Shown piece by piece: positions 6,307 to 50,151 of a DNA stretch of 64,000 nt. This DNA is from an uncultured virus (IMG/VR IMGVR_UViG_2788500352_000001) (taxonomy: Duplodnaviria > Heunggongvirae > Uroviricota > Caudoviricetes), in the IMG/VR virus record IMGVR_UViG_2788500352_000001; one strand, given 5' to 3'. The notes below the pieces were generated by a model. It was not told the DNA's origin. It did not search any database and saw only the letters and a program-made list of their open reading frames with translations. Numbering within the stretch: the first letter of the stretch is position 1; the number at the start of each line of letters is the position of its first letter. A program made the position numbers and the translations under genes.

Positions 6307-6321
6307 TCTCTTTTCCTCTCA

Positions 6322-7803: not shown

Positions 7804-7822
7804 AGTCAGTGCTCCATAAATT

Positions 7823-8278: not shown

Positions 8279-8843
8279 TTCGCTTCTTCTCCATCAGACG
8301 TTTTGTTTCATGTTCCAGGCGCTCAGAAAGCGTTTCGGAAATCACCTGTTCAACGAGTTCGTGACGACCATCCTCCGAGAGCATCTCCGGAACGGAGATT
8401 TCCTTCAGATGCACAATCGGATAGCGGCCGGGCCCGACACGGGTAAATATCTGTCCCTTGTGCTTAAAGCCCCTGGGAAGAACCTTCGGCTTCCCGCGCT
8501 GTGCCTCCACCCTAATCTGACGCTGTCCGGATCCTGTTGTTTCGGCCACGCCCGCCGGGCGATGCCTGAACTTCATCAGAGGAATCCTTCGGCCTTTGCT
8601 GACAATCTCTCCGGTCGTAGAGTTCGGGCTGAACTTCTGCACCCTGAACGTCCGCTTCACATCCGAGGACCTGATCGTGTAATCCTGCGTGACCGCTTTC
8701 GCGGCCGCAGTCTTACCCCGGTCAATCGCACGGTTGGCTGCCAGAGAGAACGCCTTTTGCAGACCGCCCGGTATCCCCTGCAGGTACATCCGGGCATGCT
8801 CAAGGGCATCATTGTCGACAGAAACGTTGAACTGCGATTTCAC
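8271..8843 (-). CDS. Minor tail protein Z-like
   Basis: Basic protein, AANRAIDRGKT...RYPI..L...SVPEML pattern; synteny. Confidence 0.75.
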   Translation of the reverse strand: MKSQFNVSVDNDALEHARMYLQGIPGGLQKAFSLAANRAIDRGKTAAAKAVTQDYTIRSSDVKRTFRVQKFSPNSTTGEIVSKGRRIPLMKFRHRPAGVAETTGSGQRQIRVEAQRGKPKVLPRGFKHKGQIFTRVGPGRYPIVHLKEISVPEMLSEDGRHELVEQVISETLSERLEHETKRLMEKKRSG

Positions 8844-9151
8844 CGCGCCTTCCTTTCGGCCTTGATCACAATGAGTCCGTCCTCATCGCTGACGTGCTTC
8901 ACAACAAACATAACGTTGTCAATAGTGAACACCTCATCAACCGCCGGGGCCCGTATCTCGGAGGAGAGCACATAGACGGTCGTGAGCAGCGTGTACACGC
9001 CCTCATAAAGAGAGGGCGCGGTATCAGCCTCATTCGTGTCGATGATGCAGCGCAACCGACGCCCGTTGATCTCATGAACTTCGGCAAACTCCTCCATGTT
9101 CATGAAAACCGTCAGGGCGTCACGCGCCACCATATCCTTGAACCTGCTCAT
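8840..9151 (-). CDS. Head-tail joining protein (gpFII-like)
   Basis: FMNMEEFAEVHEING pattern; directly after capsid. Confidence 0.7.
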   Translation of the reverse strand: MSRFKDMVARDALTVFMNMEEFAEVHEINGRRLRCIIDTNEADTAPSLYEGVYTLLTTVYVLSSEIRAPAVDEVFTIDNVMFVVKHVSDEDGLIVIKAERKAR

Positions 9152-11073: not shown

Positions 11074-11099
11074 CCTTGTCTCCAATAAAAAACCGACGA

Positions 11100-12608
11100 T
11101 CACTCGTCGGCCTTTTCCTTCTTCTCTTCTTCCGGCTTTATCTTCACCGGCTGATCAAAGTTGAGCCCTAGTTCGGCCGCACGCTCGCGGTCGCTCTGAA
11201 TTGCCTTATCCACGTCCTCGCGGTCCTGACCGTTTCCGATCGCCGCGATCACATCACTTCGGCTCATGAAGCCATGCTGGACAGCAAGCGCATAGGCCTG
11301 AACTTCCTTCGCCGGATCAACCCAAGACCAGCCGCGCGGCTTAAAGCGCACTTCCTGATACCGTGACTTGTTGTTGAAGTAGTCCGGGATATCCACCGCT
11401 CCGGAAAGAACGGCCGCATCGAGCCACCTCCGGTAAATCGGCGTCAGGTAGTTGCGGATCAGCCACCCCTGCAGCACACGCCAGAGATCCCGCTCGTTTA
11501 AAAGCGCCAAACGACTGCTGGAGTAGTTGCTCTGGCTGTAATCCCGGCTCAAAGCCTCATAGGAGACGCCGACACCGGCCGCCACTTCGCGCAGCATGTA
11601 GCGCATGAAAGGGTCAAGGTTGGCATTGGGGCGACTCGGAGAGAATCCCTCAAAGCTTTCACCAGGGAGTAATCGCTGGAAAAGCCCTGGAGAGCTCTTC
11701 ACAATCGGCTGCTCGCGTGCTCTCTTGATGATCTCTTCGGTACCTTCTGCACCACAGACGTCAATCCCCTGCTTCACAAAACCGACGATGTTGGCCGCCG
11801 CCCTTGCCGCGACGAGTTCGGACTCGGTGTAGCCGCCCATATCCCTCATCTTCCGAAGCGCCATGTGCATCCACGGCACACCTCGGGTTTGCGGCCAGCG
11901 CTTCACGATGTACATGTGAAGGATCTCATCAGCCGCGATGCGTCGAATCGTGGCCGCAGCCGGACTGCTCAGAAACGTCGTGTCCCCTGGATGTGTTGTC
12001 CGCATCCAGTAGGCCAGAGGCCGGTGCCACTCGTTCACCTCAACACCAAGCCGCACCGTTGAACCCTGTCGGGTCTGAAAAGTACCGCTCGCCTGATCAA
12101 GCAGCAGATCCGGCTCAATGAGATCAAGCGCAAACGGAATACGGCCTCCGCCGAAAGCCTTGGGAACGATCCGTACCAGGGCTTCGCCGTCAGAGAACAC
12201 GCCGCCCACGGCCACCCGCAGGAGATCTGTGAGAGACAGAAGTCCCGCCGTATGGCAGGTATTGCGATCCGACCATTCAGCCCAAGCCGCTTCAATACGG
12301 TCATTGATGGCCGCGTCCGGCTTTCCGTCAGCTCCAGTCACCAGACACTGCAGCCCGATTCCGGTCCCCACGACGTTGTCCTCAATGATGCGTTGCAAGT
12401 TTGCCGCGTGAGGATTGTCACGGATCATTTGCCGACTGCGGTTGCGCATCGTCTCAAGGCTGCCGGCAAGCTCTGTGTCTTCACTCGACCCTCCGGCCAT
12501 CCAGTCACTGGTGAGACGGCCGCCCGCGGCTGCAGCGTACTGACGCTCAACGTACTCACCGATTTTCTGCCTTCGGGCCAGCGTCCGAAAATAATTGAAC
12601 AGTTTCAT
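11100..12608 (-). CDS. Portal protein, lambda family
   Basis: QTRGVPW, YEALSRDYSQSNYSSSR, WSWVDPAKE motifs. Confidence 0.96.
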   Translation of the reverse strand: MKLFNYFRTLARRQKIGEYVERQYAAAAGGRLTSDWMAGGSSEDTELAGSLETMRNRSRQMIRDNPHAANLQRIIEDNVVGTGIGLQCLVTGADGKPDAAINDRIEAAWAEWSDRNTCHTAGLLSLTDLLRVAVGGVFSDGEALVRIVPKAFGGGRIPFALDLIEPDLLLDQASGTFQTRQGSTVRLGVEVNEWHRPLAYWMRTTHPGDTTFLSSPAAATIRRIAADEILHMYIVKRWPQTRGVPWMHMALRKMRDMGGYTESELVAARAAANIVGFVKQGIDVCGAEGTEEIIKRAREQPIVKSSPGLFQRLLPGESFEGFSPSRPNANLDPFMRYMLREVAAGVGVSYEALSRDYSQSNYSSSRLALLNERDLWRVLQGWLIRNYLTPIYRRWLDAAVLSGAVDIPDYFNNKSRYQEVRFKPRGWSWVDPAKEVQAYALAVQHGFMSRSDVIAAIGNGQDREDVDKAIQSDRERAAELGLNFDQPVKIKPEEEKKEKADE

Positions 12609-13144
12609 AACACAAATTCCACATGCATCCGACGCGGATCAACACCACGCCGCCTGCAGCATTCGAGGTACACCTGTTTTTCCCAGTACTCGACCAGGTC
12701 CATCAGCTCTTTTGCGCTGTTGTACGTGAGATTTCGCGTACCGATGGTGTAGCTTTTGACGCGGGAACCACCTTTTGTGTAATCAGCAAGAGCCGCCTTT
12801 GCCTGAGCTAAACATTTTTGCGCTTCAGTCCGGTGGTCAAAGCCCTTGTCGGTCATGGCTGCAATCACACGAAAATCCCGCAGCGCAACCGTTTTCCGGT
12901 ACGAATCCCCGTAGGTCATCTGCATCAGGAGGATGGACTCCCCTTCCGGCAGCTTCTCTGACGCTTCCGGAGAAAGCTCAATGCGCACCGTATCGCTGCG
13001 TCTTTTCGCCGGCACCTTTACCAGGCAACCGGCAGCCGTCCGGATGAAAGCCGTTGGTTCGGCATCCGGATGCAGGCACTGAAAATGCTCTTTGACATTC
13101 ACCACCCACTCCCGGCTGTCCCCGGCAATAAGTCTCTCTACCAT
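12605..13144 (-). CDS. Head-tail adaptor with C-terminal gpW-like domain
   Basis: VKSYTIGTRNLTY motif; between terL and portal. Confidence 0.65.
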   Translation of the reverse strand: MVERLIAGDSREWVVNVKEHFQCLHPDAEPTAFIRTAAGCLVKVPAKRRSDTVRIELSPEASEKLPEGESILLMQMTYGDSYRKTVALRDFRVIAAMTDKGFDHRTEAQKCLAQAKAALADYTKGGSRVKSYTIGTRNLTYNSAKELMDLVEYWEKQVYLECCRRRGVDPRRMHVEFVL

Positions 13145-15150
13145 GAGTTGTTCCCGTTAAAGGCATTGAAGAAGTCGTCACGCGCTACCGGAGCCTCTTT
13201 CTTTTCTTTAGGCTTCTTCGGCGCTTCCGTCGACAACAAATCCATCTGCAGCTGTGTACTCTTTTCCTGATCCCACCGTGCCGGAGACCACAGATGAAGT
13301 TTCAGCGAACGTGCGGCATGAAGTGCGTAGACCTCACAGTCAAGCGCCTCATTGCGCACGCCTGACTTTTTCTGCCATACCCGCCGGGCGCTGTGACTCG
13401 CCGGAGCCTTCACTTCACTGGTGATCTGCTCCCAGTAGTCGGGACGCACCCCCTTGTACCAGTGCATACGTCCGGGGCCGCGTCCTTCGAGCTTGATGCG
13501 GCCGGCATTGGCATCCACACCGAGAAGAATGTCCTTTGCTCTGGATGTGCCGACAATAAAAGGCTTCAGGCCGAACTTCACGGACTTCTGTTGGCCGTTG
13601 AGATCAACAGAAGGTTTCGGCGTTGTGAAAATCTCCTTACTGTCATCGTTGACAGAAGAGCCTTTGATCGCCATGAAGCCACGGGCCATTCGCTTTCTAA
13701 CAAAGGTGTAAACGGCATCACTTGTCTGCCCGTCTGAAGAGTCAATGGAAACTGCACGGATACGCAGCTGCGTCCCGTTCGGTCCGGCGAACTTTCTCGA
13801 CAGGAGAGCATCCAGATCAGGCCATGCCCCTTTTTCCGGAAGCATGGTCTTACCGGAGATTTCGCCCCAGTACAAAAGCCAGGACTCTTCGCCCGGGCCC
13901 CACGCCCGGATGATGACCGCCAGGCGGTCATGCTGAACGTCCACGCCCGCCGTCAGCACACAGCCGACCTCGGGCACCGTGAGTTCGTCGTAATCCTCAA
14001 CGCGCTCAGCCAGTACATCCGGTTCCGGAAGTCCGCTCTTAAACGCATAAGGAAGCCCAAGCTGCGAGTTAAAGAAACTGCGCATCTTGGAGTCGTCACC
14101 CTGATCAAGCGCATGTTTGGCCGTCAGGTACTTATCCACCAGATTCCGGAAGCGAGATCCGGGAAACGGACTGTAGATCTCGTTGATGTAAAAGCCCGCT
14201 GTGTCGTTAAACGGTGCGGTGGCACGCCACACGCCCTGTCGCACGGCACGGTTTTTCTTTGCGTCATCCCAAACGGTCCCGCAATGAGGGCACACGTAAT
14301 AAGCTGAATCAAGCACCGCATGTCCGTACACCTCATGGTTGATGTTGGGATCTTCGTTCCACTTCACGTTGTCCCAGGACAAAACGCTTTCCTGACCGCA
14401 GTCTGGGCAAGGAACAAAGAACTTTCGTTTGTCAGACGTCTTGTAGGCCTGCTCCACGGCCGAGAATCCTTCGACCGTCGGAGTGCCGCCGTAAATCACC
14501 TTACTTCTGGCGAATGTTTTTGTTCGTTCAATAAGCAGCGTGATCGTGTCACCCTGCTCTTTAATGTTCGTGTTGCAGTCGTCCGGCTCTTCCACACAGA
14601 CCACCGGGGCCGGCGTCGACTTCACCGAGGACGGTGAGTTGGAACCTACGAGTTTCAGGAAGCCGCCGGGGAATCCCTTGAAATTCCATCGGTTGTTCTT
14701 GTCGCGTCTGGACGCAATCGGGATTTTCTCCATCAGGTGCGGAGTAGCCTCAATCATGGGCGTGAGCTTTTCGTCGTTGAACTCCTTGGCTCCGCCTTCT
14801 TTGGCAAACATCACAATCATCGGGCAGGGATCAATATCAATGCGCCTGCCGATGTAGTTAAGGAGCACGCCGTCAGTCCACGCCACCTGTGCAGACTTCT
14901 GAGCAACCACTCTGCGGACTGCCGGATCATCCAGCGCTGCGTGAATCCCCCTGATCCACGGCGTCAGACCCGCGTTGTACTTGCCCGGCGTTGCCGTTGA
15001 CTTCGCGCTCATTCCCCGGAAGGCTTCCGCCCACTCCGTGGTTCCCATCTTCTCCGGAGGCCGAATTACCTGCGCGAGCTTCTTCAGGATTTCCTGAATT
15101 GCCGGCGAGGTATCCGGACAGATGGTGAAGAGCGTTGTAGGTGTGTTCAT
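13138..15150 (-). CDS. Terminase large subunit, lambda GpA family
   Basis: KSAQVAWT Walker A variant, CPDC/CPHC zinc motifs, LTAGVDVQ, RNEALDC. Confidence 0.96.
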   Translation of the reverse strand: MNTPTTLFTICPDTSPAIQEILKKLAQVIRPPEKMGTTEWAEAFRGMSAKSTATPGKYNAGLTPWIRGIHAALDDPAVRRVVAQKSAQVAWTDGVLLNYIGRRIDIDPCPMIVMFAKEGGAKEFNDEKLTPMIEATPHLMEKIPIASRRDKNNRWNFKGFPGGFLKLVGSNSPSSVKSTPAPVVCVEEPDDCNTNIKEQGDTITLLIERTKTFARSKVIYGGTPTVEGFSAVEQAYKTSDKRKFFVPCPDCGQESVLSWDNVKWNEDPNINHEVYGHAVLDSAYYVCPHCGTVWDDAKKNRAVRQGVWRATAPFNDTAGFYINEIYSPFPGSRFRNLVDKYLTAKHALDQGDDSKMRSFFNSQLGLPYAFKSGLPEPDVLAERVEDYDELTVPEVGCVLTAGVDVQHDRLAVIIRAWGPGEESWLLYWGEISGKTMLPEKGAWPDLDALLSRKFAGPNGTQLRIRAVSIDSSDGQTSDAVYTFVRKRMARGFMAIKGSSVNDDSKEIFTTPKPSVDLNGQQKSVKFGLKPFIVGTSRAKDILLGVDANAGRIKLEGRGPGRMHWYKGVRPDYWEQITSEVKAPASHSARRVWQKKSGVRNEALDCEVYALHAARSLKLHLWSPARWDQEKSTQLQMDLLSTEAPKKPKEKKEAPVARDDFFNAFNGNNSW

Positions 15151-15553
15151 TCAAAATCGTGACATCGATGTCTGTTCCGTACAGGGTGTCAAGCTCCAAT
15201 TTCAGTTTGTCATCGCGCGCCAGAAGCTCCTGGCGAAATGCCGTGAAGACGTTCTCCAGCTCGGTCATCAGCTCGCCGATGTTGACAAGCTGTCGCCGCT
15301 TCTCCGCCAGCTGCAGCGTCTTGAGCTCGCGGTCAACGCGCTCGGTCATCGCGCGTTCCTTGTTGAGGTCGTACTCGCCGTCAATCGAGGCCTGCCCGGC
15401 CGCTACTTCCCTCAGTCGGGCGCAGTAAGCAAGGCGGACTTCATCAAGCGTCTTTTCCCGCCAATCGATCTGCAACTTGGAAAGCACTTTGGCAACCGCC
15501 TGTTTGCTGATGCCGAGATGGTTACCAATCTGTTCAAGTGTCAGTGGCTGCAT
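14927..15553 (-). CDS. Terminase small subunit (Nu1-like)
   Basis: N-terminal HTH then coiled coil (LREVAAG...DLNKERA); upstream of and overlapping terL. Confidence 0.8.
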   Translation of the reverse strand: MQPLTLEQIGNHLGISKQAVAKVLSKLQIDWREKTLDEVRLAYCARLREVAAGQASIDGEYDLNKERAMTERVDRELKTLQLAEKRRQLVNIGELMTELENVFTAFRQELLARDDKLKLELDTLYGTDIDVTILNEHTYNALHHLSGYLAGNSGNPEEARAGNSASGEDGNHGVGGSLPGNEREVNGNAGQVQRGSDAVDQGDSRSAG

Positions 15554-15594
15554 ACCGTGTCAACCCCCTTGGGGCGCTGGTGAGTAGTGAATTT

Positions 15595-15638
15595 TCGGGC
15601 GCTTCGCCGCCGCATCGGTTTGAGGCCGGGAAGGACCC
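15595..15638 (-). other. Putative lambda-type cos site (cosQ + cosN-like)
   Basis: Minus strand GGGTCCT-TCCCGG...TGCGGCGGCGAAGCGCCCG just upstream of terS, resembling lambda cosQ and GGGCGGCGACCT. Confidence 0.7.
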
Positions 15639-15751
15639 GCTCACGCGAGTGCCGCCCGGCTTCAGGAATAAAAAAGAGGCAGCCGAAGCCGCCCCAAGAC
15701 CCCGGCTCGCTCGGGAGATGAAACGAGCCTAAGGTAGCGAAATTCAATCAA

Positions 15752-15782
15752 TAAAAAAGCCCGCCGAAGCGAGCTCTTTTTT
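15752..15782. terminator. Bidirectional intrinsic terminator after HAD gene
   Basis: AAAAAAGCCCGC-CGAA-GCGAGCTCTTTTTT. Confidence 0.7.
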
Positions 15783-16692
15783 ATTTCTCAATCAAATGCC
15801 TTGGTGTGCCGGGCTTGTACTTATCAATTTCGGCCTGTTTAGCATCAATAAGCTTTTGGGCCTGCCCTTTGAGCCTTTGCATAATCCACATATACGCCGT
15901 TTTTCCCTTACGATAATCGGCCTCGGCATACATTTGCACACGTCCGTCGCGTCTCATATCCTCAACCTGACTCATGGCCTTTTCATCACCCTCGGGATAG
16001 ACAGCAAATGTTGCACCGCCTTTTTGATTGATTACCGAGAATGCCGGCACGTCACTGGGGCCATCAGCGACATAAATCATGTTGACGAACTGAACCCGCC
16101 GCTCGGCTTCATCGATCTTTGTATTCACGTCAATTTTGCTGTTTTTGTATTCAGCAATACCAACACCTTTATTGATCTCAAAAAGTGCCCTTGTTTTCGT
16201 TGTATTATCGATGCTGTAAGCGATTTCCTCGATCTCTCCACCAGCATTTTCAAGAAAATCACATCCCCAGATTTTTTCAACGTAAGGCGCTATGACGGTG
16301 CCCTCAATTACCTTGCGCAGCCCTGTGCTGACGATGTAGTTCTCAAACTTGATTCCATACTCGGAGTATGGCTTCTGTGTCGTCAAGTTTTTAATCTCCC
16401 GAAGAAGATCAATCGCACCTTCGTAAAACTTTTGCTCCTTGCCGTAACTTTTGAGTTTTTCGTTTGACAATCCTTGCAATCGCCTGTCTCTCACGTAACG
16501 AAGCATCAGATTCAGGTAAAAAGTGTCGGCATTTACAAAACAGTCACCCTTTTTGCACTCAGCAATTAGTTTTTCGTTCTCATCCCAAAAGCCGACAGGA
16601 TCAATTCTGTATTCGTTAAACATCGGGTCCTGCATGTAGCCGCTGATCAGCGTCTTATCAAAATCCCAAATTGTCGCGATTACATCAGACAT
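15781..16692 (-). CDS. HAD-superfamily hydrolase (moron)
   Basis: Motif I WDFDKT, motif II IVSTG, motif IV YVADGPSD; visibly more AT-rich than flanks. Confidence 0.85.
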   Translation of the reverse strand: MSDVIATIWDFDKTLISGYMQDPMFNEYRIDPVGFWDENEKLIAECKKGDCFVNADTFYLNLMLRYVRDRRLQGLSNEKLKSYGKEQKFYEGAIDLLREIKNLTTQKPYSEYGIKFENYIVSTGLRKVIEGTVIAPYVEKIWGCDFLENAGGEIEEIAYSIDNTTKTRALFEINKGVGIAEYKNSKIDVNTKIDEAERRVQFVNMIYVADGPSDVPAFSVINQKGGATFAVYPEGDEKAMSQVEDMRRDGRVQMYAEADYRKGKTAYMWIMQRLKGQAQKLIDAKQAEIDKYKPGTPRHLIEK

Positions 16693-16758
16693 AGAATCTC
16701 CGAAATTGTTCCCGTACCGACAGTCTAATCAGCGCATCCGCCGCAGCAAAAATTATAT

Positions 16759-16998
16759 TCAGGGAGAGGCCTCAGCCCTTGCCGGAGCTGAGGCCTCTGG
16801 AAACTGACTCAAGCGCGGGAATTCCGACGCTCCGCCAGTGTACTTAGCAGGTACTCGGTGCTGCGTCCTCAAAGCCAACTTAATCACAACCAGCTGCTTT
16901 AGAAACCATAAGAACGAAAGGAATGTGGCAACGAAACCCAAGAGCGCTGCTACCGCAAGAACGGCCAGTAGCCAGTACGCCATCACCACCTCCGTCAA
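16759..16998 (-). CDS. Small single-TM membrane protein (putative)
   Basis: Long hydrophobic N-terminus; GGAGG precedes the internal ATG (MAYWLL). Confidence 0.5.
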   Translation of the reverse strand: MTEVVMAYWLLAVLAVAALLGFVATFLSFLWFLKQLVVIKLALRTQHRVPAKYTGGASEFPRLSQFPEASAPARAEASP

Positions 16999-17014
16999 CA
17001 GGGTTCCGGATACG

Positions 17015-17044
17015 AAAAAACCCGCGCTTTCGCAACGGGTTTTT
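17015..17044 (-). terminator. tR'-like terminator after late promoter
   Basis: AAAAAACCCG...CGGGTTTTT hairpin ~45 nt downstream of predicted start site. Confidence 0.7.
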
Positions 17045-17092
17045 GACTCTCTCGACTGGCACTACCTACACGTAGCACCAAATTCTAGCGAA

Positions 17093-17121
17093 AATGTACC
17101 ATTTACCGGACAAACCGTCAA
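17093..17121 (-). promoter_or_regulatory. pR'-like sigma70 late promoter
   Basis: TTGACG-N17-TACATT at the end of the Q-like gene. Confidence 0.7.
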
Positions 17122-17507
17122 GCGGCCGCCTTAGCGGCATCGTTAGCCGCATCCCGGCGCATGCGAGCAGTATCAAGGGCTTCAGCCACTTTGTACTCCG
17201 CTCTCGTGACTCTTTTGCGCAACACCTCAACATCCAGGTCACACCAATCCGCAATATCGGTCAGAAGCACCTTGTTCGACCGGGGCCCAGTGACGTACAC
17301 AAGCACGATTGTCACCCGGTCATCCGGCGAGAGCTTCCGCAGCGCCGCATGCACCTCCCGCGCAAGCCGGTAGTCCTTCGGAATCCACGCCTCGGCATTG
17401 GCGGCCGCCACCGGCATCCCGTCCAGTGCCGGCGACTTGATCTGCCCCTCAGAGTCAATCCAGGCCGCCCACTCGCGCAAACGCCGCATCACCCATCTCA
17501 GGCGCAT
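17118..17507 (-). CDS. Late antiterminator Q-like protein
   Basis: RRLREWAAW N-terminus, C-terminal HTH; followed by promoter and terminator. Confidence 0.7.
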   Translation of the reverse strand: MRLRWVMRRLREWAAWIDSEGQIKSPALDGMPVAAANAEAWIPKDYRLAREVHAALRKLSPDDRVTIVLVYVTGPRSNKVLLTDIADWCDLDVEVLRKRVTRAEYKVAEALDTARMRRDAANDAAKAAA

Positions 17508-18085
17508 TTTTTCTCCTCCTCTGCCGGCTCATAGATGACCTTACCGGCGAGGATGTCAAGCACCCGCTGCGCATTCGCCACACCGACGCCCCGAGGCGTC
17601 TCCCGCGTGATCTCCGTCAGAATCCCATTCTTTACCGCGAGCTTCTGCGCCTTGATGTTCACAAACTTGGCCATGAGCTTTTGCATCCGGTTCGCATACG
17701 CCTGGAGAGGTTCCGCCGGGCCGCGCCGCAGCTCCTCGGCAGAGAATTCCTCCAGGAAGAGCGCCCGCTCAGCCAGACCCGGCAACAGCAAGGCCGTTTT
17801 CTTTGCTTCCTCACCAAGAGGCCACGCCAAAATCGTCTTAATCGCGTCATTCAACGCCAGGATCGGTTGCCAGCGGCTGATTTTGCTCACGAGCGGGATG
17901 CACTTCGGCTCATGGCACTCGGCATGAAAGATGCACTTGTAGCGCGGCAGGCCGTCTGCATAGCCGGCGAAGTCAAGCCCAATGTTCGGACACCCGCTGT
18001 AGCAACACATGTACCGTCCGCGACTCTCCTGAGCTTTGCCGGCATCGGCTACCTCTTTCTTCGTCTTTTCAAAAACATCGCTCAT
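17498..18085 (-). CDS. Hypothetical protein with Cys-rich N-terminus
   Basis: 195-aa ORF coupled to neighbours. Confidence 0.65.
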   Translation of the reverse strand: MSDVFEKTKKEVADAGKAQESRGRYMCCYSGCPNIGLDFAGYADGLPRYKCIFHAECHEPKCIPLVSKISRWQPILALNDAIKTILAWPLGEEAKKTALLLPGLAERALFLEEFSAEELRRGPAEPLQAYANRMQKLMAKFVNIKAQKLAVKNGILTEITRETPRGVGVANAQRVLDILAGKVIYEPAEEEKKCA

Positions 18086-25735: not shown

Positions 25736-25833
25736 CATGCAGAAAAAGCGTAAACTCCTCACTAGATGTCCTGAGCGCCAAGAGCGCCTGAGACACGGAA
25801 CCCCGAGCGCCGCAAGGTACCCGGGGTTCAATT

Positions 25834-36101: not shown

Positions 36102-36135
36102 AGAGTAAACCGAAAGATCAGAGCTTTATGGACGG
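36102..36135 (-). promoter_or_regulatory. Putative late promoter 1
   Basis: CCGTCCATAAA-N17-TACTCT upstream of internal virion genes. Confidence 0.75.
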
Positions 36136-36539
36136 ACTACTTTGGCGAGGGCGTCGTGGTTTGCGGCGCAGCGCTGATAAAGTCGGCCGCATTCCGAACC
36201 AGAGTCAGCCAGTCTTTGAACCAAGCCTTCCAGCTCGGTAACTCTTCGTCTAAGAGCGTCTGTGGAATCTCCGCCTGCGGAGCCGTGACCGTCCGCGTGG
36301 CGCAACCGGGCGCGAGCACGATCAAGCTCAGCACGCAAATCGTTGTACTCAGCCTGCGCCAGGTTGATCGTGTCCGTTGCTTTTGAAAGTCCTTCTGCAT
36401 TCTTTCTCTCCGCCGCACGTAGCGCATCAGACTGCGCCGCCTCCATGAGGGCAATTTCCCGGTCATAGTGCGCAGAGGTCAACCAAGCTCCTGTGCCAAA
36501 AGCCAGGACGACCGCCACCATGTAGACGTAATCTTTCAC
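36126..36539 (-). CDS. Rz-like i-spanin
   Basis: N-terminal TM helix plus coiled coil, last lysis gene. Confidence 0.8.
   Translation of the reverse strand: MKDYVYMVAVVLAFGTGAWLTSAHYDREIALMEAAQSDALRAAERKNAEGLSKATDTINLAQAEYNDLRAELDRARARLRHADGHGSAGGDSTDALRRRVTELEGLVQRLADSGSECGRLYQRCAANHDALAKVVRP
36137..36400 (-). CDS. Rz1-like o-spanin lipoprotein embedded in Rz
   Basis: Alternate-frame ORF with lipobox-like VLSLIVLAPGC and Pro-rich mature part; start uncertain. Confidence 0.65.
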   Translation of the reverse strand: MQKDFQKQRTRSTWRRLSTTICVLSLIVLAPGCATRTVTAPQAEIPQTLLDEELPSWKAWFKDWLTLVRNAADFISAAPQTTTPSPK

Positions 36540-36805
36540 AGCTCTACCCCTTCGAGTTTCGCGCGGCGGCGAAGAACGTCGAGATACCCATCCATCACAT
36601 AGGTCTGGAAACCATACAGCTCACGAGAGAGCGTCGGCGTAAAGTCCAGCTTCCCCGCATCCCATTTATCAAGCATCGCCCCAAGTTTTTTCCGGCGAAT
36701 TTTCAGTTGCAGGTACTCCGCCTTGAAGCGATCTTTGTAGTCATCGCTACACATCAGCGCGGCAGTGTCTTTGAGCTCCATCATTTGCGACTCCTGTAGT
36801 CCCAA
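36536..36805 (-). CDS. Conserved small phage protein in lysis cassette (crAss001_48-like)
   Basis: DTAALMCSDDYKDRFKAEYLQLKIR motif. Confidence 0.65.
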   Translation of the reverse strand: MGLQESQMMELKDTAALMCSDDYKDRFKAEYLQLKIRRKKLGAMLDKWDAGKLDFTPTLSRELYGFQTYVMDGYLDVLRRRAKLEGVEL

Positions 36806-37158
36806 TAAGCGTGATGACCACGCACGTCAACATGGACGAACGCGTCGTAAAGTCCGACGCCGCCGTCTTTATTGAGCTCCAGGCACAAGTCCTGAAACTC
36901 AGGAATTAACCGCGGATCATCCGGTCGAATATCCGCCGCCATGCCTTTCGTGTGATAAGAATTAGACACGGCCCCGGGAATCGTCGCGTTGTATTCTGGG
37001 CTTCGGTATCCCGAATTAACGAGAACCGGCTTCCCCCACTGTCGGCGGATGCGGTTCAAAAGATTCAAAAGCTCGTCCCGTACGACGTGCGGGAAAGGAG
37101 ACTGATGCGGGTCATTCGGACTCTGCAACTCCTTTTCGTCAAAGAAACCGTATTTCAT
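36781..37158 (-). CDS. Endolysin, peptidase M15 family
   Basis: VNSGYRS, SYHTKGMAAD, FVHVDVR. Confidence 0.92.
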   Translation of the reverse strand: MKYGFFDEKELQSPNDPHQSPFPHVVRDELLNLLNRIRRQWGKPVLVNSGYRSPEYNATIPGAVSNSYHTKGMAADIRPDDPRLIPEFQDLCLELNKDGGVGLYDAFVHVDVRGHHAYWDYRSRK

Positions 37159-37442
37159 CGGCCGCCTCTTTCTAAAAAACTTTTCAGGATGCTCACGCCG
37201 TCTTTTCCCATCATGCCACCCAGCCCGGCAAGCGCCCCCGCGGCCTCGTCCGGCAAACCGTAAGAGTGCGCGGCCATACAGATCAGAAAACCAATGAATC
37301 CCGACAAGGCTACCGCCCCGAAGAATTCCCACCAAAGGAATGGTTTCGCTTTATCCAACGAGTTCAAATACATCAGACACTGAGCCATAGCGCCCACCGC
37401 GAAGGAAAAAAGGTATCGAAAACAATCGTGGTACTCCTGCAT
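37155..37442 (-). CDS. Holin (LydA-like)
   Basis: Three hydrophobic segments, GALAGLGGMMG; overlaps endolysin start. Confidence 0.8.
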   Translation of the reverse strand: MQEYHDCFRYLFSFAVGAMAQCLMYLNSLDKAKPFLWWEFFGAVALSGFIGFLICMAAHSYGLPDEAAGALAGLGGMMGKDGVSILKSFLERGGR

Positions 37443-43287: not shown

Positions 43288-44955
43288 TTACATCACGCCC
43301 TGAGATGGTTGCTCTTGTTCGGGACTCATCGCTATATCCGCGCCGCCGACACTGCCTGCCGCCTGCCCCAAATCCTTGATAGTGGAAGCCGCCTGTGCTG
43401 CCTGCATCTGCTGCTGTTGCTGCGCCTGCTCTTCGGCGCGCTGCTTGCGAATGATTGCCACCCGAGAGCCCGCAACGATCATGGACGGCGGAACGCCGTT
43501 CATATCCGCCAAGAGATCAATCGTTTCATCGGCATCCAATTTGTCGAGCGCTTCCGGACGCATCTGCGCCAGAACGCCAATCTGCTGCACCGTGCGCATA
43601 ACGCCGTCCACCGCAGAACTTTTCTGCATCTGCGCCAGTACCGAGATGTATTCAACATTGAGTTCTTTCCCCTGCATTTCCTGCGGAGGTTCAGGCACCA
43701 AGTCGGCCTCCACTAGGTATCCAAACGCCGTAGAGACCAACGGATCAAGCATTTCCGTATGAAGGCGCTCAAGCACCGGCCCAAGCATCATCACCTTTTC
43801 CTGTTCCAACGCCTGGATTTCGGTAGCCGTACGGTCAGTACCTTGATTCGCCGCGATCATCTGGAAGATGTTCACATTGAAGTAGCGCTGTATCTGCGCC
43901 CGTGCGTCTGCGATCTGCGCCTGCAGCATTTCAGGCGATGCCTGCACTGCCCAAGCCGAGCGAATCACGTCGTTGTCCGCAGGGTCAACCGGGATGCGAC
44001 CGCCGGGACGGAATAGCTGCATTGCGCCCTTGTACTTTGTCGGGTATTGAATCGGTGGATTCGAGAGATAATCCGTGAGGATGCCCATCTGCTTTTGCAG
44101 GCGCTGCAGACTTTTAGCCGCCGACAAGGCTTTCGCACCAGGGCCACGCCCGTAAACAGAGCCCGCCGTAGTGAGCCATCGGGGACACAACGCCGGAAAT
44201 TGGTCATAGCCGGACTCACCCAGCACCTTGCCGTCACTGCGGCCTTGTTCCCAATACACAGACCGCCACGGCTTATTGTGGTTGTCGTGCTTCATCACGT
44301 TACGGTCAAGACGCGGCTCAATGGCGTGCATCACGTCAAAGCGACGGTACGGGTTATCGCGTAAGGAACTTCTGACATCGGTGCTGACAGCATCGATACC
44401 GAACTTCTGCACCATCTGCTTCGCCGTCATGCTGATATGACGATAAACCGTGTCGATACGGTCGAACGGATCAGCCGCGAGCCAGTATTCCCCAACCGTG
44501 AGATTCATCATATCGATGACACGGTCAGGGTGACGCTGCACAATGGAACACGCAGTCCCGAACGCCGGAAGCTCAAGATATGAGCGATGCAGCGAGTTGT
44601 AGACCTCCGACTTTGCGAAATACATCAGGATCAAGTCCTGAAGTTCAGACAGCCACTGTTTCACATCCGGCGATTCGTCTAAGTCCGGATCCATTGTCGT
44701 AAGACGCAGCCACGGCCGCGACGGCGAACTGACGCCCGCCAAGAGTCCTGCCGCCAAAATATCGGCACTGTCTGCGGCTTCGGCATCATACAGGCGCGTG
44801 TAGCGCTTACCGCCCTCGTAGCCACGCTCACCGGGGAACGCCCCCAAGTCCGGCACCTCATAGTCGCGTATGTCGTACCAAAGGTTTTCCCACGTCTCAC
44901 GTTCCGCTTTCAGCCCAGCCAAGCGCTGCTGAAGCTGCTTGACATCAACTGCCAT
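43288..44955 (-). CDS. Portal (head-tail connector), T7-like
   Basis: SPSRPWLRL, YGRGPG, RTATEI, LGPVLERL motifs. Confidence 0.95.
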   Translation of the reverse strand: MAVDVKQLQQRLAGLKAERETWENLWYDIRDYEVPDLGAFPGERGYEGGKRYTRLYDAEAADSADILAAGLLAGVSSPSRPWLRLTTMDPDLDESPDVKQWLSELQDLILMYFAKSEVYNSLHRSYLELPAFGTACSIVQRHPDRVIDMMNLTVGEYWLAADPFDRIDTVYRHISMTAKQMVQKFGIDAVSTDVRSSLRDNPYRRFDVMHAIEPRLDRNVMKHDNHNKPWRSVYWEQGRSDGKVLGESGYDQFPALCPRWLTTAGSVYGRGPGAKALSAAKSLQRLQKQMGILTDYLSNPPIQYPTKYKGAMQLFRPGGRIPVDPADNDVIRSAWAVQASPEMLQAQIADARAQIQRYFNVNIFQMIAANQGTDRTATEIQALEQEKVMMLGPVLERLHTEMLDPLVSTAFGYLVEADLVPEPPQEMQGKELNVEYISVLAQMQKSSAVDGVMRTVQQIGVLAQMRPEALDKLDADETIDLLADMNGVPPSMIVAGSRVAIIRKQRAEEQAQQQQQMQAAQAASTIKDLGQAAGSVGGADIAMSPEQEQPSQGVM

Positions 44956-45850: not shown

Positions 45851-46285
45851 TCACAGACTCCTTATAAATGTCACCTGACAGCCTGAATGCGGCCGTTTCT
45901 GCAAAGCCGCGGCGAGTGGTGCTTGCTCGTCGCAGATCCACTGAAACGACGTACACCCCCGCTTTTTTGCCTCACGCTCACACATCACAAAAAGCCGTCC
46001 GGGCACCATCGTCCCTCGGTATTCGGGCAATACGAAAATCGTGTCGTTGCAGGCCGTAAGTTCCCCAGAATGCTGATGAGGCGCGACAAAGATCGACGCA
46101 GCCCCCACCGCTTTTTCTCCGTCGTAGGCGACAAAGGCAAACGCCAGCGAGTTTTCGGAGAGTGCGCGGTAGAAGTCTTCCGTCGGATCAAAGATCGGGC
46201 CGTTACCTGATTCGCGGAAATTCGTTTCAAGCAAATCTCGGTGCTTCCGCAGCAGGTCATAACAGGACATGAGTACGTATCGCAT
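45851..46285 (-). CDS. GNAT-family acetyltransferase (probably leaderless mRNA)
   Basis: IFVLPEYRG...LF..CEREAKKRG motif A. Confidence 0.82.
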   Translation of the reverse strand: MRYVLMSCYDLLRKHRDLLETNFRESGNGPIFDPTEDFYRALSENSLAFAFVAYDGEKAVGAASIFVAPHQHSGELTACNDTIFVLPEYRGTMVPGRLFVMCEREAKKRGCTSFQWICDEQAPLAAALQKRPHSGCQVTFIRSL

Positions 46286-46291
46286 ACCCGC

Positions 46292-46370
46292 AGTTTCAGC
46301 GGGGCGACGGTACATTTATGGACGACAATCGCTCAATCGTCCATAAACTTCAAAGCCTTGCAAATACGAT
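46292..46370. promoter_or_regulatory. Back-to-back pair of putative late promoters (4 and 5)
   Basis: TTTATGGACGA-N11-TCGTCCATAAA inverted repeat; minus copy N17-GAAACT, plus copy N17-TACGAT. Confidence 0.78.
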
Positions 46371-46402
46371 GCGTTCATGAAATTTCATGGGAGGGTACTG
46401 CA

Positions 46403-46615
46403 ATGGAAATTCAAGTCCGTTGCCGATGCGGCAAACGCCTTTTCGACCTTTCGCTAGACAGGCCTCCAGGCGGACGCATCTACATCTTGTGTCGCTGTAA
46501 AACGATGAACGTCATCGACCTTTCAGCGTATTCCAATCTGCAGGCCCATTCGGAGCCTGTTTCAAAAGAGGCCCCTGAGCCCACTTCTCAGCGCCAAGCG
46601 AGCGCACAATCCTGA
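46403..46615 (+). CDS. Mu Com-like zinc-finger translational regulator
   Basis: MEIQVRCRCGKRLF...IYILCRCKTMN (four Cys, Com-type layout); GGGAGGG RBS; GAGnnCC sites at its 3' end. Confidence 0.75.
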   Translation: MEIQVRCRCGKRLFDLSLDRPPGGRIYILCRCKTMNVIDLSAYSNLQAHSEPVSKEAPEPTSQRQASAQS

Positions 46616-46652
46616 GAACCTTGAGTTCCATAGCAAAAGGAGTTTGCTATGG
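46614..46652 (+). promoter_or_regulatory. Tandem GAGnnCC sites plus RBS/start-sequestering hairpin
   Basis: GAGAACC-TT-GAGTTCC overlapping perfect stem CCATAGCAAA-[AGGAG]-TTTGCTATGG that contains the ATG. Confidence 0.8.
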
Positions 46653-47266
46653 CTGAATTTGCTTCTAAAGGCCTCGCCAACGGCGTAGGCATCCCTGCCC
46701 TTGTTTTGGGCTCTCTCGGCTTTCTTGGCTCTGCCAACAACGGCAACGGCGGAATCCTCGGCGGCCTTTTTGGCGGCGGAAACTGCAATCAGGTTTCTGC
46801 GCTGATGGCTGAGAACGCTAACCTCCGCGCGGAGAAGTACTCTGACAACAAGAACGCCGAGGTGTACGTCGCCTCTCGCGCTGAGAACAAGGCGCTACGT
46901 GACGAGCTCATGGGCTTTATCCGCCCGCTCTCCAACGAGGCCGCGCAGAACCGTGAACGCATCGCTGTGCTCGAAACCAACGTGGCCAAGAACGCCGAGA
47001 TCGCCGACCTGCGCGAGAAGCTGGTGCGCGCCGAACTTGGCGCCAAGATTGACACTGTTGCGCAGACGTGCGGCTGTGGTATTGCCCAGCTCAACAACGC
47101 TGTCGCCGGTATCAACACCACGTTGAACCAGATCACCCACACGGTTATCCCGCGCACAGCGATCTGTCCTGAAGTGATGGAACGCTACAACTCGTGGGTT
47201 GCGCCCACAGCCGCAGCTCCGGCAGTTCAGCCGGTGACTGGCAGCATCAACGTTAACCGGGGTTAA
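46649..47266 (+). CDS. Uncharacterised protein: Gly-rich hydrophobic N-terminus, coiled coil, CGC motif
   Basis: 205 aa, AGGAG RBS. Confidence 0.85.
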   Translation: MAEFASKGLANGVGIPALVLGSLGFLGSANNGNGGILGGLFGGGNCNQVSALMAENANLRAEKYSDNKNAEVYVASRAENKALRDELMGFIRPLSNEAAQNRERIAVLETNVAKNAEIADLREKLVRAELGAKIDTVAQTCGCGIAQLNNAVAGINTTLNQITHTVIPRTAICPEVMERYNSWVAPTAAAPAVQPVTGSINVNRG

Positions 47267-47269
47267 GCC

Positions 47270-47605
47270 ATGAGAATGCCGATTGGAAACTTGCCTGCGG
47301 TGGTTGTGGAATTTGCTCAGCAAGTCCTCATCCCGGCCGCAGAAAAGCAGGGCGGTTCTCTGCCCTTCGCCGTCGGCATCGTCTCGGGGCTCGTCGCACA
47401 GCGGGCCCCGGCGATGATCGAACCTTACCTGCCGATGCTCAAGTCTTTGGGAGCGGTGGATGAGCAAAACCGAATCGACGTGGACTTACTGTACGGCGAA
47501 GCCGCAAAGAACCTTGAAGCGCACCCGTTCGCCATCGGGCCGTACAAGCCTGATCGAGGCGACCTGGATGCGCTGAAGGAAATCATGAACCGGCATGGAG
47601 AATAG
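47270..47605 (+). CDS. Uncharacterised 111-aa protein
   Basis: 3 nt after previous stop. Confidence 0.8.
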   Translation: MRMPIGNLPAVVVEFAQQVLIPAAEKQGGSLPFAVGIVSGLVAQRAPAMIEPYLPMLKSLGAVDEQNRIDVDLLYGEAAKNLEAHPFAIGPYKPDRGDLDALKEIMNRHGE

Positions 47606-47607
47606 TC

Positions 47608-47787
47608 ATGGAAATGAAGGAACTTATGAAAGCCCGCGCGGAGCAATCCATGCACTGCCTGCTCGAAAAGATCGACAAGGTATGCGATGAGGCCCGCGAC
47701 AGTGGCGGCTTAAGCGGTGAGGACGTTCGCACGCTTGAAAAAGCGTGGTGCGCCATCGCCACTATAAAGGCTGTCTGCAAGGAGTAA
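47608..47787 (+). CDS. Uncharacterised 59-aa helical protein with four Cys
   Basis: Own translation MEMKELMKARAEQSMHCLLEKIDKVCDEARD...AVCKE; GGAG RBS. Confidence 0.7.
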   Translation: MEMKELMKARAEQSMHCLLEKIDKVCDEARDSGGLSGEDVRTLEKAWCAIATIKAVCKE

Positions 47788-47789
47788 CG

Positions 47790-47815
47790 AAAAACCCCGG
47801 TTCATCGCCGGGGTT
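47790..47815. terminator. Terminator between converging cassette and tailspike
   Basis: AAAAACCCCGG-TTCATCG-CCGGGGTT. Confidence 0.7.
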
Positions 47816-47862: not shown

Positions 47863-50151
47863 TTACAGCCGCGCCTCAATCTGCGCCAGGCGCCATCTCT
47901 GGTAAGCGGCTTCAAGTGCAAGAGCCTCTTCATAGCGGATGCCGTACCGATCGCCCGCAGGAGTCACGAGACGATGCACAACGTGAGTCTGAGCAGGCGT
48001 GACGGTACCATCTTCTGCGACGACCTCTGGCGTATCGACAACCTCTACGTCTTCGTATTCGTCATCCCATTTGTCGTAGCAGAGAAGACCGTAACGAGTT
48101 GCGTCCAGACCTTCGGACTCGAATGCCGCCTTCACCTCCTGGGCAACGACGCCGACGTGGATTCGAGCGTCGCCGCCCTTCTTCTCTACAGCGTCCTTGA
48201 ACTGGAAGACCTTGAAGTTCACCTTGCTCCAGGCACGCATGAGGGCGTCGTCGGGGGAGTCGATCGAAGTCTTCGACCGCTCGTCGGACGTGTTGATTGT
48301 GCCTGTAGCCGCGAAAAGTTGAGACCAACGTGCCGTTGCTGATCCTAACGCCTGAGCATTACTCAAACCGGGGTTAAGAGATTTTTCTGCACTTAGTAAA
48401 ACTCGTGCAGTAAATGTAGATCCATCCCACTCCCCAATAAAAAATTGAGTATTTATCGGATAGGAAATGTGCCCTGATTTTGAATATGCATTTCCAAATC
48501 GAAAGTGCGGACGGTTTACCCCAACGAATGTTGACGTTGCATTTTGAGCAAAATCTGACTCACAAGCACTGACATTAGTTGCAACGAAGTCTCTTAGCTG
48601 CCCCGTAGATGTTTCTGACGATGTCACCAAGACTTTATTTTTCAAGCCTACTATGTCAATGTTTTCAAGAACAACTCGCTCGTTATTAGATATGATGCCC
48701 GCAGCTAATCCAGATTGCTTTTCTACAATGAAATTTGCAATTTTATCTATGGATCCAGCCTTATCGAAAAGAGCATACGTATAGCCTTCTAGATTATCCA
48801 CGAAAACATTTTCGACGATATTGTGCTTAGACGATGCAAAATCCGATACCTGCGTCGTAAACAGCCCGTAGTATTCCGAAGTACCGCTTACATAGCTAAT
48901 ATCTCTGAAGGCGAGATTTCTATATACGCCAAAGAATCCGTTGAGGACGCATTGAACCTTCGCCACGTTTTCAGAACAAATCCCATAAGTTTGCAACCCG
49001 TCCACGACTACGTTTGCATAACCTTCCACCTTGACAGGTCGGAGTTTGGTTGCGCCCTCGTATGAAGCACTCAAATCTCTTAACGTAATGTCAGTGAAAA
49101 TAACATTCCTTGCACAAGTCTTTTCTGCAAGTTCAGTCTGAGGCACTTCCGTAGGAACGCACCAGGCAACACAACCGTTGGCAACCTTTTCAGCAGTTGA
49201 AGCTGTAACTGTGATGTTTCTTGCAGGCGGCTCTTGATGGTGCCCAACAGCAGAATATGCGCTTGCATAGCCATAGACGTAGCAGCTTGTAGCAGTGCAA
49301 TTTTCACTACCCCCATCAAATTCAATGCCGTTTTGATTTTCTTTTGCTTTGACAGATCGATTAAATATTGATTTATGACCATCAACCAAAACATTTTTAG
49401 CAAAGTGTGTCGTTAAACCATCGTCGATGACTGAGTTAATTGTCTTTGTATCTCTAAAGACAATTTGCTCACATCCGCCAGACACAGCATCGTAATTAAA
49501 GTGACCAACATCGTGGTTGTTTTTTAATTCAAAAGTGCTACAGTCAAACCCGTGCATAACTGCATCTATGACAGTAACATTTTCAACTAAAGCACCTTTT
49601 ACGCCTGCGAGCTTTACACCGCAACCACCATAACTATCAGTAACCTGAGCGGCTCTATCCCACCCGTTCATCTTGATAGCTAAGTTTTTGATTGTGATGT
49701 CAGTATCATAAGTTGTTTGTGCGACTGACTGGTACTTCGCTTTATATCTAGAAAGATTTACGAAACCATCAAGTTCGTTCTTTGCCGTTTTAGCCACGAC
49801 AAATATCGTTTTCTTTTCGCCATCTCCATAAACGAAGCTGTCAGAGGGCAACGCAATATCTGACGAAATTAAGTAGACGCCTGAAGGCATGTAGCAAGCG
49901 ACATGTCTGTCAGTGCTTTGAACAATCGCGGCCTGAATGGCTGCAGTGTCATCATGGTGGCCATCGCCAACAGCTCCAAAATCCTTCACATTGACGACGT
50001 CCGCGAAGCGGTACCGGAGCTGACGCGGGTAGACGGTACCGGCCGCGGCCACCGGCAACATATCCCCGATGCCTGTGGGCGTTTCCACAATGTGAATATC
50101 CTTGCCCTTCTTCTTGGCGAGGGCGACGCCGGAATGGTATTGGATTGTCAT
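47863..50151 (-). CDS. Tailspike: pectate-lyase-like beta helix plus C-terminal S74 intramolecular chaperone
   Basis: VNVKDFGAVGDG..DDTAAIQAA; TSDERSKT, HVGVVAQEV, YGIRYEE. Confidence 0.9.
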   Translation of the reverse strand: MTIQYHSGVALAKKKGKDIHIVETPTGIGDMLPVAAAGTVYPRQLRYRFADVVNVKDFGAVGDGHHDDTAAIQAAIVQSTDRHVACYMPSGVYLISSDIALPSDSFVYGDGEKKTIFVVAKTAKNELDGFVNLSRYKAKYQSVAQTTYDTDITIKNLAIKMNGWDRAAQVTDSYGGCGVKLAGVKGALVENVTVIDAVMHGFDCSTFELKNNHDVGHFNYDAVSGGCEQIVFRDTKTINSVIDDGLTTHFAKNVLVDGHKSIFNRSVKAKENQNGIEFDGGSENCTATSCYVYGYASAYSAVGHHQEPPARNITVTASTAEKVANGCVAWCVPTEVPQTELAEKTCARNVIFTDITLRDLSASYEGATKLRPVKVEGYANVVVDGLQTYGICSENVAKVQCVLNGFFGVYRNLAFRDISYVSGTSEYYGLFTTQVSDFASSKHNIVENVFVDNLEGYTYALFDKAGSIDKIANFIVEKQSGLAAGIISNNERVVLENIDIVGLKNKVLVTSSETSTGQLRDFVATNVSACESDFAQNATSTFVGVNRPHFRFGNAYSKSGHISYPINTQFFIGEWDGSTFTARVLLSAEKSLNPGLSNAQALGSATARWSQLFAATGTINTSDERSKTSIDSPDDALMRAWSKVNFKVFQFKDAVEKKGGDARIHVGVVAQEVKAAFESEGLDATRYGLLCYDKWDDEYEDVEVVDTPEVVAEDGTVTPAQTHVVHRLVTPAGDRYGIRYEEALALEAAYQRWRLAQIEARL

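Follow-up and report, generated by a model that had tools for sequence, protein, structure and literature searches.

A 64,000-nucleotide (nt) stretch of DNA from an uncultured virus (IMG/VR record IMGVR_UViG_2788500352_000001, the whole of which is called the window here) carries, on its plus strand and between minus-strand late genes of a prophage, a cassette (46315–47815) in which a small zinc-finger gene resembling com of phage Mu is followed by three cargo genes, P1, P2 and P3. Our analysis indicates that this cassette probably encodes a translational switch, in which an RNA-binding zinc-finger protein of the Com family and an array of hairpins in the P1 leader would together gate production of P1–P3, a reading drawn from sequence and comparison. 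The zinc-finger open reading frame (ORF; 46403–46615, plus strand, 70 amino acids (aa)) has a strong Shine–Dalgarno (SD) sequence, GGGAGGG, at 46389–46395 and ends in a TGA stop codon at 46613–46615. It is followed on the same strand by P1 (46649–47266, 205 aa), P2 (47270–47605, 111 aa) and P3 (47608–47787, 59 aa), with spacers of 3 nt between P1 and P2 and 2 nt between P2 and P3. In a preliminary description of the window the 70-aa ORF with its four cysteines, the sequence GAGAACC-TT-GAGTTCC, a 10-base-pair (bp) hairpin and genes of 205, 111 and 59 aa had been picked out by eye from the letters and the list of ORFs, and all of these were recovered at the same positions, as was the opposed orientation of the cassette relative to the late operon.

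The P1 leader RNA and its conservation

The sequence GAGAACC-TT-GAGTTCC (46614–46629), the first GAG of which overlaps the stop codon of the zinc-finger ORF, is an exact match to the consensus NGAGNNCC(N)2-3GAGNNCCNN obtained with Mu Com by systematic evolution of ligands by exponential enrichment (SELEX), where the selected RNA forms a hairpin with an invariant C–G closing pair (PMC6483171). The preliminary description had given the Com site as GAG(N)2CC, in agreement with the published consensus. Scanning 100 nt of upstream sequence in the leaders of the window's clade revealed that the site belongs to an array of three tandem Com-type hairpins, each with a 4-bp stem, a C–G closing pair and a loop of the form C(N)3-5GA. 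H1 (46569–46582, plus strand, AGGC-CCCTGA-GCCC) lies within the 3′ coding region of the com-like gene, H2 (46591–46605, plus strand, GCGC-CAAGCGA-GCGC) follows, and H3 (46616–46628, plus strand, GAAC-CTTGA-GTTC) forms the core of the 46614–46629 site, the spacing being about 22–25 nt and the hairpin that encloses the P1 start coming next. The last C of H3 doubles as the first base of this start, or translation-inhibition, hairpin (46628–46652, plus strand), a perfect 10-bp structure of the form CCATAGCAAA-AGGAG-TTTGCTATGG that presents AGGAG in its loop (46638–46642) and holds the ATG of P1 (46649–46651) in its 3′ arm.

Folded alone, the start hairpin has a predicted energy of −11.8 kcal/mol (−9.5 for its Mu equivalent), and the ATG of P1 (46649) ties for the most sequestered of the 66 ORF starts in the window, with an unpaired probability of 0.003. 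The small hairpins are much weaker, ranging from −0.8 (H3) to −4.6 kcal/mol when folded alone (−2.4 for the Mu site). Com-type hairpins occur at 0.45 per kilobase (kb) in the window, and when both strands were considered there was just one place with three of them within 70 nt. An Rfam search gave nothing above noise. The 16-nt double site GAGNNCCNNGAGNNCC occurs twice in the window against an expectation of 0.18. The second exact copy, GAGCGCCAAGAGCGCC (25773–25788, plus strand), can be folded as GCGC-CAAGA-GCGC and lies in a non-coding stretch near a prophage end, where there is no adjacent zinc-finger gene and ARAGORN found no transfer RNA.

The comparison of leaders drew on the DNA around P1 homologues at 100 loci (19 genome loci, 79 viral loci and 2 phage records; single loci are given as L numbers). 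Members of the closest clade (P1 59–100% identical) and four distant loci (32–37%) share an upstream ORF with the pattern CxxC...CxxC, the motif ACC-N-GAGTT and a hairpin that covers the SD or ATG; these four loci are on contigs titled Duodenibacillus, Sutterella or Wujia. P1 homologues in low-GC gut phages lack zinc-finger ORF, motif and start hairpin. Co-occurrence was counted on the 70 distinct leaders that had enough upstream DNA: the motif was present in 20/20 leaders with an upstream Com-like ORF and absent from 48/50 without one, the two exceptions being L023, in which com is frameshifted, and L038, in which it has been lost. The mean unpaired probability of the AUG was 0.12 in com-linked and 0.55 in com-less leaders.

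In an alignment of 18 distinct leaders 88.3% of cells were paired, compared with 15.6–43.6% when the pairing partners were slid, and compensatory change on both sides was seen in 12 of 21 base pairs. Among 500 shuffles none equalled the observed values on four of the five measures used and 19 did so on the fifth. The closing C–G pair is retained in 18/18 sequences in each of H1, H2 and H3. For the individual structures, 90.3% of cells were paired in H1 (two of four pairs changing on both sides), 100% in H2 (two of four pairs covarying from GC to AU, in four sequences each) and 98.6% in H3; in the start hairpin compensatory changes were found in L025, L037, L004 and L045. Four shorter leaders of Sutterellaceae type are less regular. 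Some of their loops break the C...GA rule, with GC or GT in place of the terminal GA in H1 of L006, L008 and L009 and GC in H2 of L011. In these shorter leaders it is the SD, not the AUG, that lies in the 3′ arm of the hairpin. The preliminary description had looked to homologues of the 205-aa gene for conservation of the hairpin and sites; both are indeed kept, with covariation, and co-occur with the zinc-finger gene.

When 34 genomes of the host genus were scanned with a covariance model of the leader (R1), the only matches were to this cassette in four genomes, all four being sequences on which the model had been trained; R1 did not match the Mu leader. Of the 120 matches listed in a pattern scan of viral contigs, 21 hold the full leader and all 21 precede a gene of the P1 family. 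In another scan with a leader pattern the full leader was present in 2 of the 119 matches listed, and most of the matches listed in both scans are due to chance. The same leader is found joined to different zinc-finger N-termini and to different P1 N-termini.

These comparisons bear on a different explanation of the leader, in which the start hairpin simply throttles translation, or couples it in cis when opened by ribosomes finishing the zinc-finger ORF, and the protein acts elsewhere, for example as a small DNA-binding transcription factor. The geometry in the window would permit this, as the zinc-finger stop codon overlaps the first GAG and lies 13 nt before the foot of the hairpin, which a terminating ribosome would reach. 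In addition the com-less loci L013, L018, L020 and L076 bury the P1 start by pairing it with unrelated upstream sequence (unpaired probability ≤0.07), which hints that throttled P1 translation is a recurring need. However, between 15 and 114 nt separate the zinc-finger stop from the P1 start, depending on the locus, while the form of the array is kept. Some loci have the hairpins within the zinc-finger frame, others past its stop codon or 114 nt downstream of it, and in all these positions they are retained, so that the constraint must act on the RNA, and coupling to a terminating ribosome cannot be the conserved feature. Nor would a mere spacer be expected to keep its C...GA loops and closing C–G pairs in 18/18 leaders for all three hairpins, to equal the Com SELEX consensus, or to be missing wherever the zinc-finger gene is missing, save for the two decayed cases. 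We regard this explanation as unlikely and return to the translational switch.

From the anatomy of the leader and its comparison with known systems the switch might be pictured as follows. Without the zinc-finger protein the start hairpin would keep ribosomes off P1. Protein that has accumulated would bind the hairpin array, of which H3 overlaps the foot of the start hairpin by one base; binding would loosen the start hairpin and P1 would be translated, with P2 and P3 following by translational coupling over the 3-nt and 2-nt spacers. Such an arrangement may reflect a need for tight, late timing of the cargo. It is also conceivable that the protein binds the array for another purpose, such as repression, stabilization or processing of the messenger RNA or anti-termination, and does not open the start hairpin. 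In Mu itself melting of the hairpin by Com is described as occurring 'by the unknown mode', with none seen for truncated Com (PMC6483171), and both the number of sites, which exceeds that in Mu, and the single base shared between H3 and the start hairpin would suit a role of this kind. Against it, a binding hairpin abutting an SD/start hairpin is the layout that has been shown experimentally to give activation in Mu (PMC6483171), and a repressor would be redundant with a start site that is already closed. A function other than opening of the start hairpin thus seems improbable to us.

The zinc-finger protein

The four cysteines of the zinc-finger protein are arranged as C-R-C ... C-R-C, giving two CxC knuckles (encoded at 46421–46429 and 46490–46498). 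This form is found in both knuckles of the window copy and of identical or near-identical copies in L022, L024, L041, L042 and L046. Other relatives carry CxxC...CxxC, among them L039 and L040, which have the same gene neighbourhood as the window; the paired shortening of the knuckles is retained in phages whose P1 is 64–100% identical. At least 13 divergent versions of the protein, with 25–58% identity to the window copy, could be aligned (alignment A2), and in this alignment C7, C9, R12, D15, C30 and C32 are invariant. The preliminary description had identified the protein as Com-like. When a profile of 13 sequences was compared with Mu Com using hhalign the two aligned with a probability of 96.5% (E 9.2e-10) over 35 columns spanning both knuckles, which supports this identification. 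The window protein by itself gave 41% identity to Mu Com over 41 residues in BLASTP (E 0.097) and matched PHROG 6417, annotated as 'translational regulator', with an E-value of 0.033. PF10122 (Zn_ribbon_Com) was matched by 4/13 of the zinc-finger proteins at E≤0.01, with bit scores of 20.3 for L008 and 19.5 for L032 (Mu Com itself scores 36.8). We treat the protein as a divergent member of the Com family on the strength of the profile and the predicted operator, not of a Pfam threshold.

The C-terminal tail APEPTSQRQASAQS (46560–46612) is kept across zinc-finger versions that are otherwise divergent. This is because H1 and H2 encode it, the same RNA being non-coding in other loci, so that conservation of the protein is here explained by an overlapping RNA structure.

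The 70-aa ORF is short, the zinc-finger ORF of the window has just 2 homologues in a collection of 5.8 billion proteins, and tblastn with its product against 50,697 phage records gave no match, all of which would be expected if the ORF were not a gene and the resemblance to a Com system were due to chance. Set against this are the divergent versions, at least 13 of them at 25–58% identity, in which the four cysteines, R12 and D15 are invariant, as well as the strong SD sequence and the strict co-occurrence of the ORF with the RNA motif, and a chance resemblance appears to us very improbable indeed.

A number of points nevertheless weigh against a Com-type switch in this cassette. Minimization of the energy of the whole leader (z −0.58) does not predict H1–H3, which rest on covariation and analogy, and the low stability of the small hairpins fits, but is no proof of, sites that are stabilized by protein. 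The 18 aligned leaders are related, so that the shuffles overstate both significance and independence; the controls with slid partners, which retain this relatedness, still favour the structure. Each CxC knuckle of the window protein is one residue shorter than the canonical CxxC, and binding of zinc and RNA is only predicted. The window protein has no Pfam match, with none to PF10122 at E≤0.1, and no relative reaches the gathering cut-off of that family (22.9 bits), the best being L011 with 22.5. Generic zinc-ribbon families match as many of the proteins or more, Zn_ribbon_3 being matched by 8/13. In Pseudomonas syringae a premature stop codon in the com gene upstream of lscB left levansucrase production unchanged (PMC3899960), and the presence of com beside a cargo is therefore not proof that the cargo depends on it. 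Both this result and the many generic zinc-ribbon families that score like PF10122 would also suit a start hairpin that acts as a throttle or coupling device and a protein that acts elsewhere. With respect to the remainder of the cassette, the late-promoter role of the motif GTCCATAAA (see below) is putative, being deduced from the sharing of the motif; the cargo matches no family, fold or defence system, which makes any function proposed for it a guess; and the phage already has holin, endolysin and spanin-like ORFs, so that the cargo would be accessory and not the main lysis system.

Transcription signals, phage context and cargo

The preliminary description had credited the cassette with a late-type promoter, and this did not hold up as worded. 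A promoter scan found no sigma-70-like site upstream of the cassette, and what is present instead is the 9-nt sequence GTCCATAAA (46339–46347, plus strand), which lies 56 nt upstream of the zinc-finger gene and is shared with five minus-strand late-gene junctions. Exact copies are found at 52469, 46323, 43283, 37503 and 36133 on the minus strand and at 46339 on the plus strand, six in all in the window compared with about 0.5 expected (our own estimate for a 9-mer in 128 kb), and all six are intergenic, in the orientation of the genes and within the late region at 36–52 kb. They mostly follow CC or C, often just past the stop codon of the upstream gene, and lie 0–65 nt before the next start. 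Two of the copies make up an 11-bp inverted repeat (46315–46347) and face the GNAT gene (minus strand) and the zinc-finger gene (plus strand), respectively; the repeat folds at −12.6 kcal/mol (z −4.58) and is a candidate for a shared regulatory or promoter element. The motif might serve as a late promoter element, bind an activator or mark a site of processing. As it precedes both the cassette and the late-gene junctions, transcription of the cassette probably follows that of the late genes, and the distribution of the motif supports a predicted co-regulation with them.

The preliminary description had also placed a terminator after the cargo. A strong G+C-rich hairpin is indeed present at 47793–47815 (−19 and −18.8 kcal/mol; z −3.95 and −3.12), and 0/200 shuffles fold as well. 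On the plus strand it has an A-run before it and a weak T-run after it, the better run (TTTTT) being on the minus strand, and it was not listed by a simple terminator scan. It is probably a two-way terminator that also stops the tailspike transcript.

The cassette is flanked on one side by the tailspike gene (47863–50151, minus strand) and on the other by a gene for a GNAT acetyltransferase (45851–46315, minus strand), with the portal gene (43288–44955, minus strand) further along on the latter flank. The structural set of the prophage is T7-like (portal, protease/scaffold, major capsid, tail tubular A and B and internal virion proteins) and it also encodes terminase genes, a CI-type repressor, a DnaC-type loader and a RecE-like exonuclease. 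The cassette is best explained as a transcription unit in its own right, opposed to the late operon, in a temperate podovirus-like prophage. No insertion polymorphism of the cassette was found, as it is present in 6/6 viral contigs that share the GNAT neighbour, and its context varies at other loci: in L037 it follows genes for an endolysin and an Rz-like protein and precedes an integrase gene, and in L023 it lies among tail-fibre genes. The host is probably a Gram-negative gut bacterium of Sutterellaceae type (a betaproteobacterium); the short com-gated form found in genomes of the same genus coincides with contigs titled Duodenibacillus sp. and Sutterella sp. L003 and L004, which carry a window-type cassette with a P1 77% identical, are in bins titled Collinsella and Coriobacteriaceae, in conflict with a host of Sutterellaceae type, and these labels may be a binning error.

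The synteny of three genes (160–215 aa, about 110 aa and 56–72 aa) holds at most loci, and phages from several bacterial phyla carry the module. A search of the protein collection gave 745 homologues of P1, and no Pfam domain was recognized in any of them. P1 begins with an invariant MAEFASKG, has a Gly-rich hydrophobic segment at residues 8–26 and a long coiled coil, and ends in a conserved VCP..NSW..T-rich sequence; its predicted structure is a single helix (residues 49–162) with a predicted local distance difference test score (pLDDT) of 63. The hydropathy of the hydrophobic segment (1.5–1.67) is borderline for a membrane segment, 12 of 32 members reaching 1.6, and P1 is probably a membrane-anchored protein with a long coiled coil. 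P2 is predicted to be a soluble helical protein (pLDDT 92.5) and its family comprises 1,317 representative clusters (50% identity) at E≤0.001. Its fold gave no match in the PDB (best Foldseek E 2.4; best VIA-align Z 4.6), and in BFVD it resembles uncharacterized phage proteins only, including those of crAss-like phages. P3 is small and soluble, belongs to a family kept in synteny and weakly matches PHROG 23683 (function unknown; E 0.017). Searches of Pfam, PHROGs, NCBIfam-type families and PADLOC gave no informative match for P1–P3 or their family members, an ESM Atlas search was likewise uninformative, and in a sequence-profile search of the PDB all hits had E>0.01. Neither Mom nor any DNA-modification family was matched by the cargo in the Pfam, PHROG and PADLOC searches, in keeping with the preliminary description, which had stated that the cargo is not mom. 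The neighbouring GNAT protein was considered as an analogue of Mom and rejected, as it is unlike both Mom and the GNAT protein encoded near L009.

Two fused forms were encountered. P0124 (1369 aa, a single cluster) carries an HExxH motif and continues in frame into a full P1-like C-terminal part, which begins just past the usual MAEF; it may be a natural fusion or an artefact of read-through. A 433-aa sigma-factor fusion, also a single cluster, came from the search for fused forms, and both are possibly artefacts of gene calling.

The module usually lies after tail-fibre assembly genes; it adjoins lysis genes in 4/16 loci and elsewhere an integrase gene or nrdD. Its presence on contigs titled Clostridia and in Bacteroides phages argues against a spanin, and P1 matched no holin or spanin family in Pfam or PHROG. 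The lysis cassette of the phage itself (36126–37442, minus strand) lies between the tail tubular B gene and the genes for internal virion proteins and encodes a holin (37158–37442, minus strand; PHROG 6384, 2.9e-11), an M15/MepK-like endolysin (36781–37335, minus strand), an 89-aa protein of PHROG 774 (minus strand) and an Rz-like ORF (36129–36539, minus strand) in which a +1-frame ORF with a lipobox-like LAPGC (36140–36466) is embedded.

A dedicated translational lock suggests that untimely expression of the cargo is costly. The lock, together with the com-less homologues that bury their start codon, weakly favours a late, envelope-directed accessory function that would harm the cell if expressed early, and we put this forward as a possibility which is itself somewhat doubtful. 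More speculative still is the idea that P1–P2–P3 constitute an unrecognized, phylum-spanning and toxic system acting late on the envelope, in which P1 would be inserted in the membrane as a coiled-coil protein with a Gly-rich N-terminus resembling a fusion peptide and P2 and P3 would be its soluble partners, one lineage having captured the three-site Com lock and others burying the start in other ways; this we hold only tentatively. Were it true, the Com-gated versions would serve as markers for a new class of dangerous late function and would represent a natural allelic series for the Com–RNA code. The lock offers a handle on a module that is abundant, as judged by the size of the P1 and P2 families.

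The other end of the window (1–18000) is the late region of a second, unrelated prophage, with genes for a VgrG-like protein (410–1513), a TP901-type tape measure (1720–4971), a prohead protease/major capsid fusion (9151–11103) and a lambda-type portal (11100–12608). The window thus consists of two adjacent prophages and has no evident housekeeping gene.

Comparison with Mu com–mom and other Com systems

The closest parallel is com–mom of phage Mu, in which the hairpin bound by Com adjoins a translation-inhibition structure holding the GUG start codon of mom (PMC6483171); in the Mu leader (AF083977) ATGC-CTGCGA-GCAT lies directly before the hairpin that holds GGAG and the GUG start. As in Mu, a small zinc-finger gene with four cysteines directly precedes the cargo and shares its operon, a hairpin of 4 bp with a closing C–G pair presents CC(N)2-3GAG in its loop and abuts the SD/start hairpin, and the cassette is at the end of the late region, after tail-fibre or tailspike genes. 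Several features differ. There are three tandem binding hairpins here where the same search rule finds one in Mu, the cargo shows no resemblance to Mom, and the com-like gene and the cargo do not overlap. GATC is absent from 46316–46402, so that there is no GATC cluster for Dam/OxyR control, the zinc knuckles are CxC, and the phage is not of Mu type, being T7-like in its structural genes and having a CI-type repressor. The predicted system would extend the Mu-type switch beyond Mu-like phages and beyond DNA-modification cargo, here to a podovirus-like prophage of gut bacteria of Sutterellaceae type.

Exchange of cargo behind com has been described before, Com homologues preceding DNA methyltransferases in cases where com was kept and the cargo exchanged (PMC3299994). 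The Com-gated methyltransferases of Pseudomonas B3, FluMu (Hin1523), Pnm1 (Nma1821) and phages UMP151 and Chuche resemble our cassette in that com is kept with a different cargo, but there the cargo is a single DNA-modifying enzyme whereas here it is three proteins of non-enzymatic appearance and without family. The Pseudomonas Mu-like phages JD024, with a Mom-like cargo, and UMP151, with a methylase, each have two tandem hairpins, and their stems (AGGC/GCCT and GCGC/GCGC) and spacing are the same as those of H1 and H2 in the window. By the same search rule phage Chuche has no Com-type hairpin.

Genes of the PF10122 family also precede about 90% of the L-type bacteriocin genes of Pseudomonas, other tailocin cargo and a lytic enzyme, in a role that the authors leave for later study (PMC6240691), and in P. 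syringae a 'phage-associated promoter element' forms a mobile unit of promoter, com and N-terminus before levansucrase and glycosyl hydrolase genes (PMC3899960). Like these Pseudomonas units, the leader described here runs into the first codons of the gene that it precedes (P1) and occurs in varied phage contexts. It differs from them in that the predicted RNA operator is explicit and covarying, none being described in the accessible portions of PMC6240691 and PMC3899960, and in that the hosts are gut bacteria of Sutterellaceae type and not Pseudomonas. A literature search, which mostly covered journals outside subscription, brought up no report of this cargo family or of three such hairpins in tandem.

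The preliminary description had proposed that the Com mechanism is reused here for a different payload, and this is supported. Since reuse of Com for other payloads was already in print (PMC3299994, PMC6240691 and PMC3899960), the idea is less new than had been implied. The locus does offer a natural data set for recognition of RNA by Com, with three hairpins per leader in 18 leaders, in which the stems covary and the loops hold C...GA, paired with at least 13 divergent zinc-finger versions that include the CxC form. To the Com-like genes already known before cargo other than mom it adds a variant with a predicted three-hairpin operator and a three-gene module as cargo.

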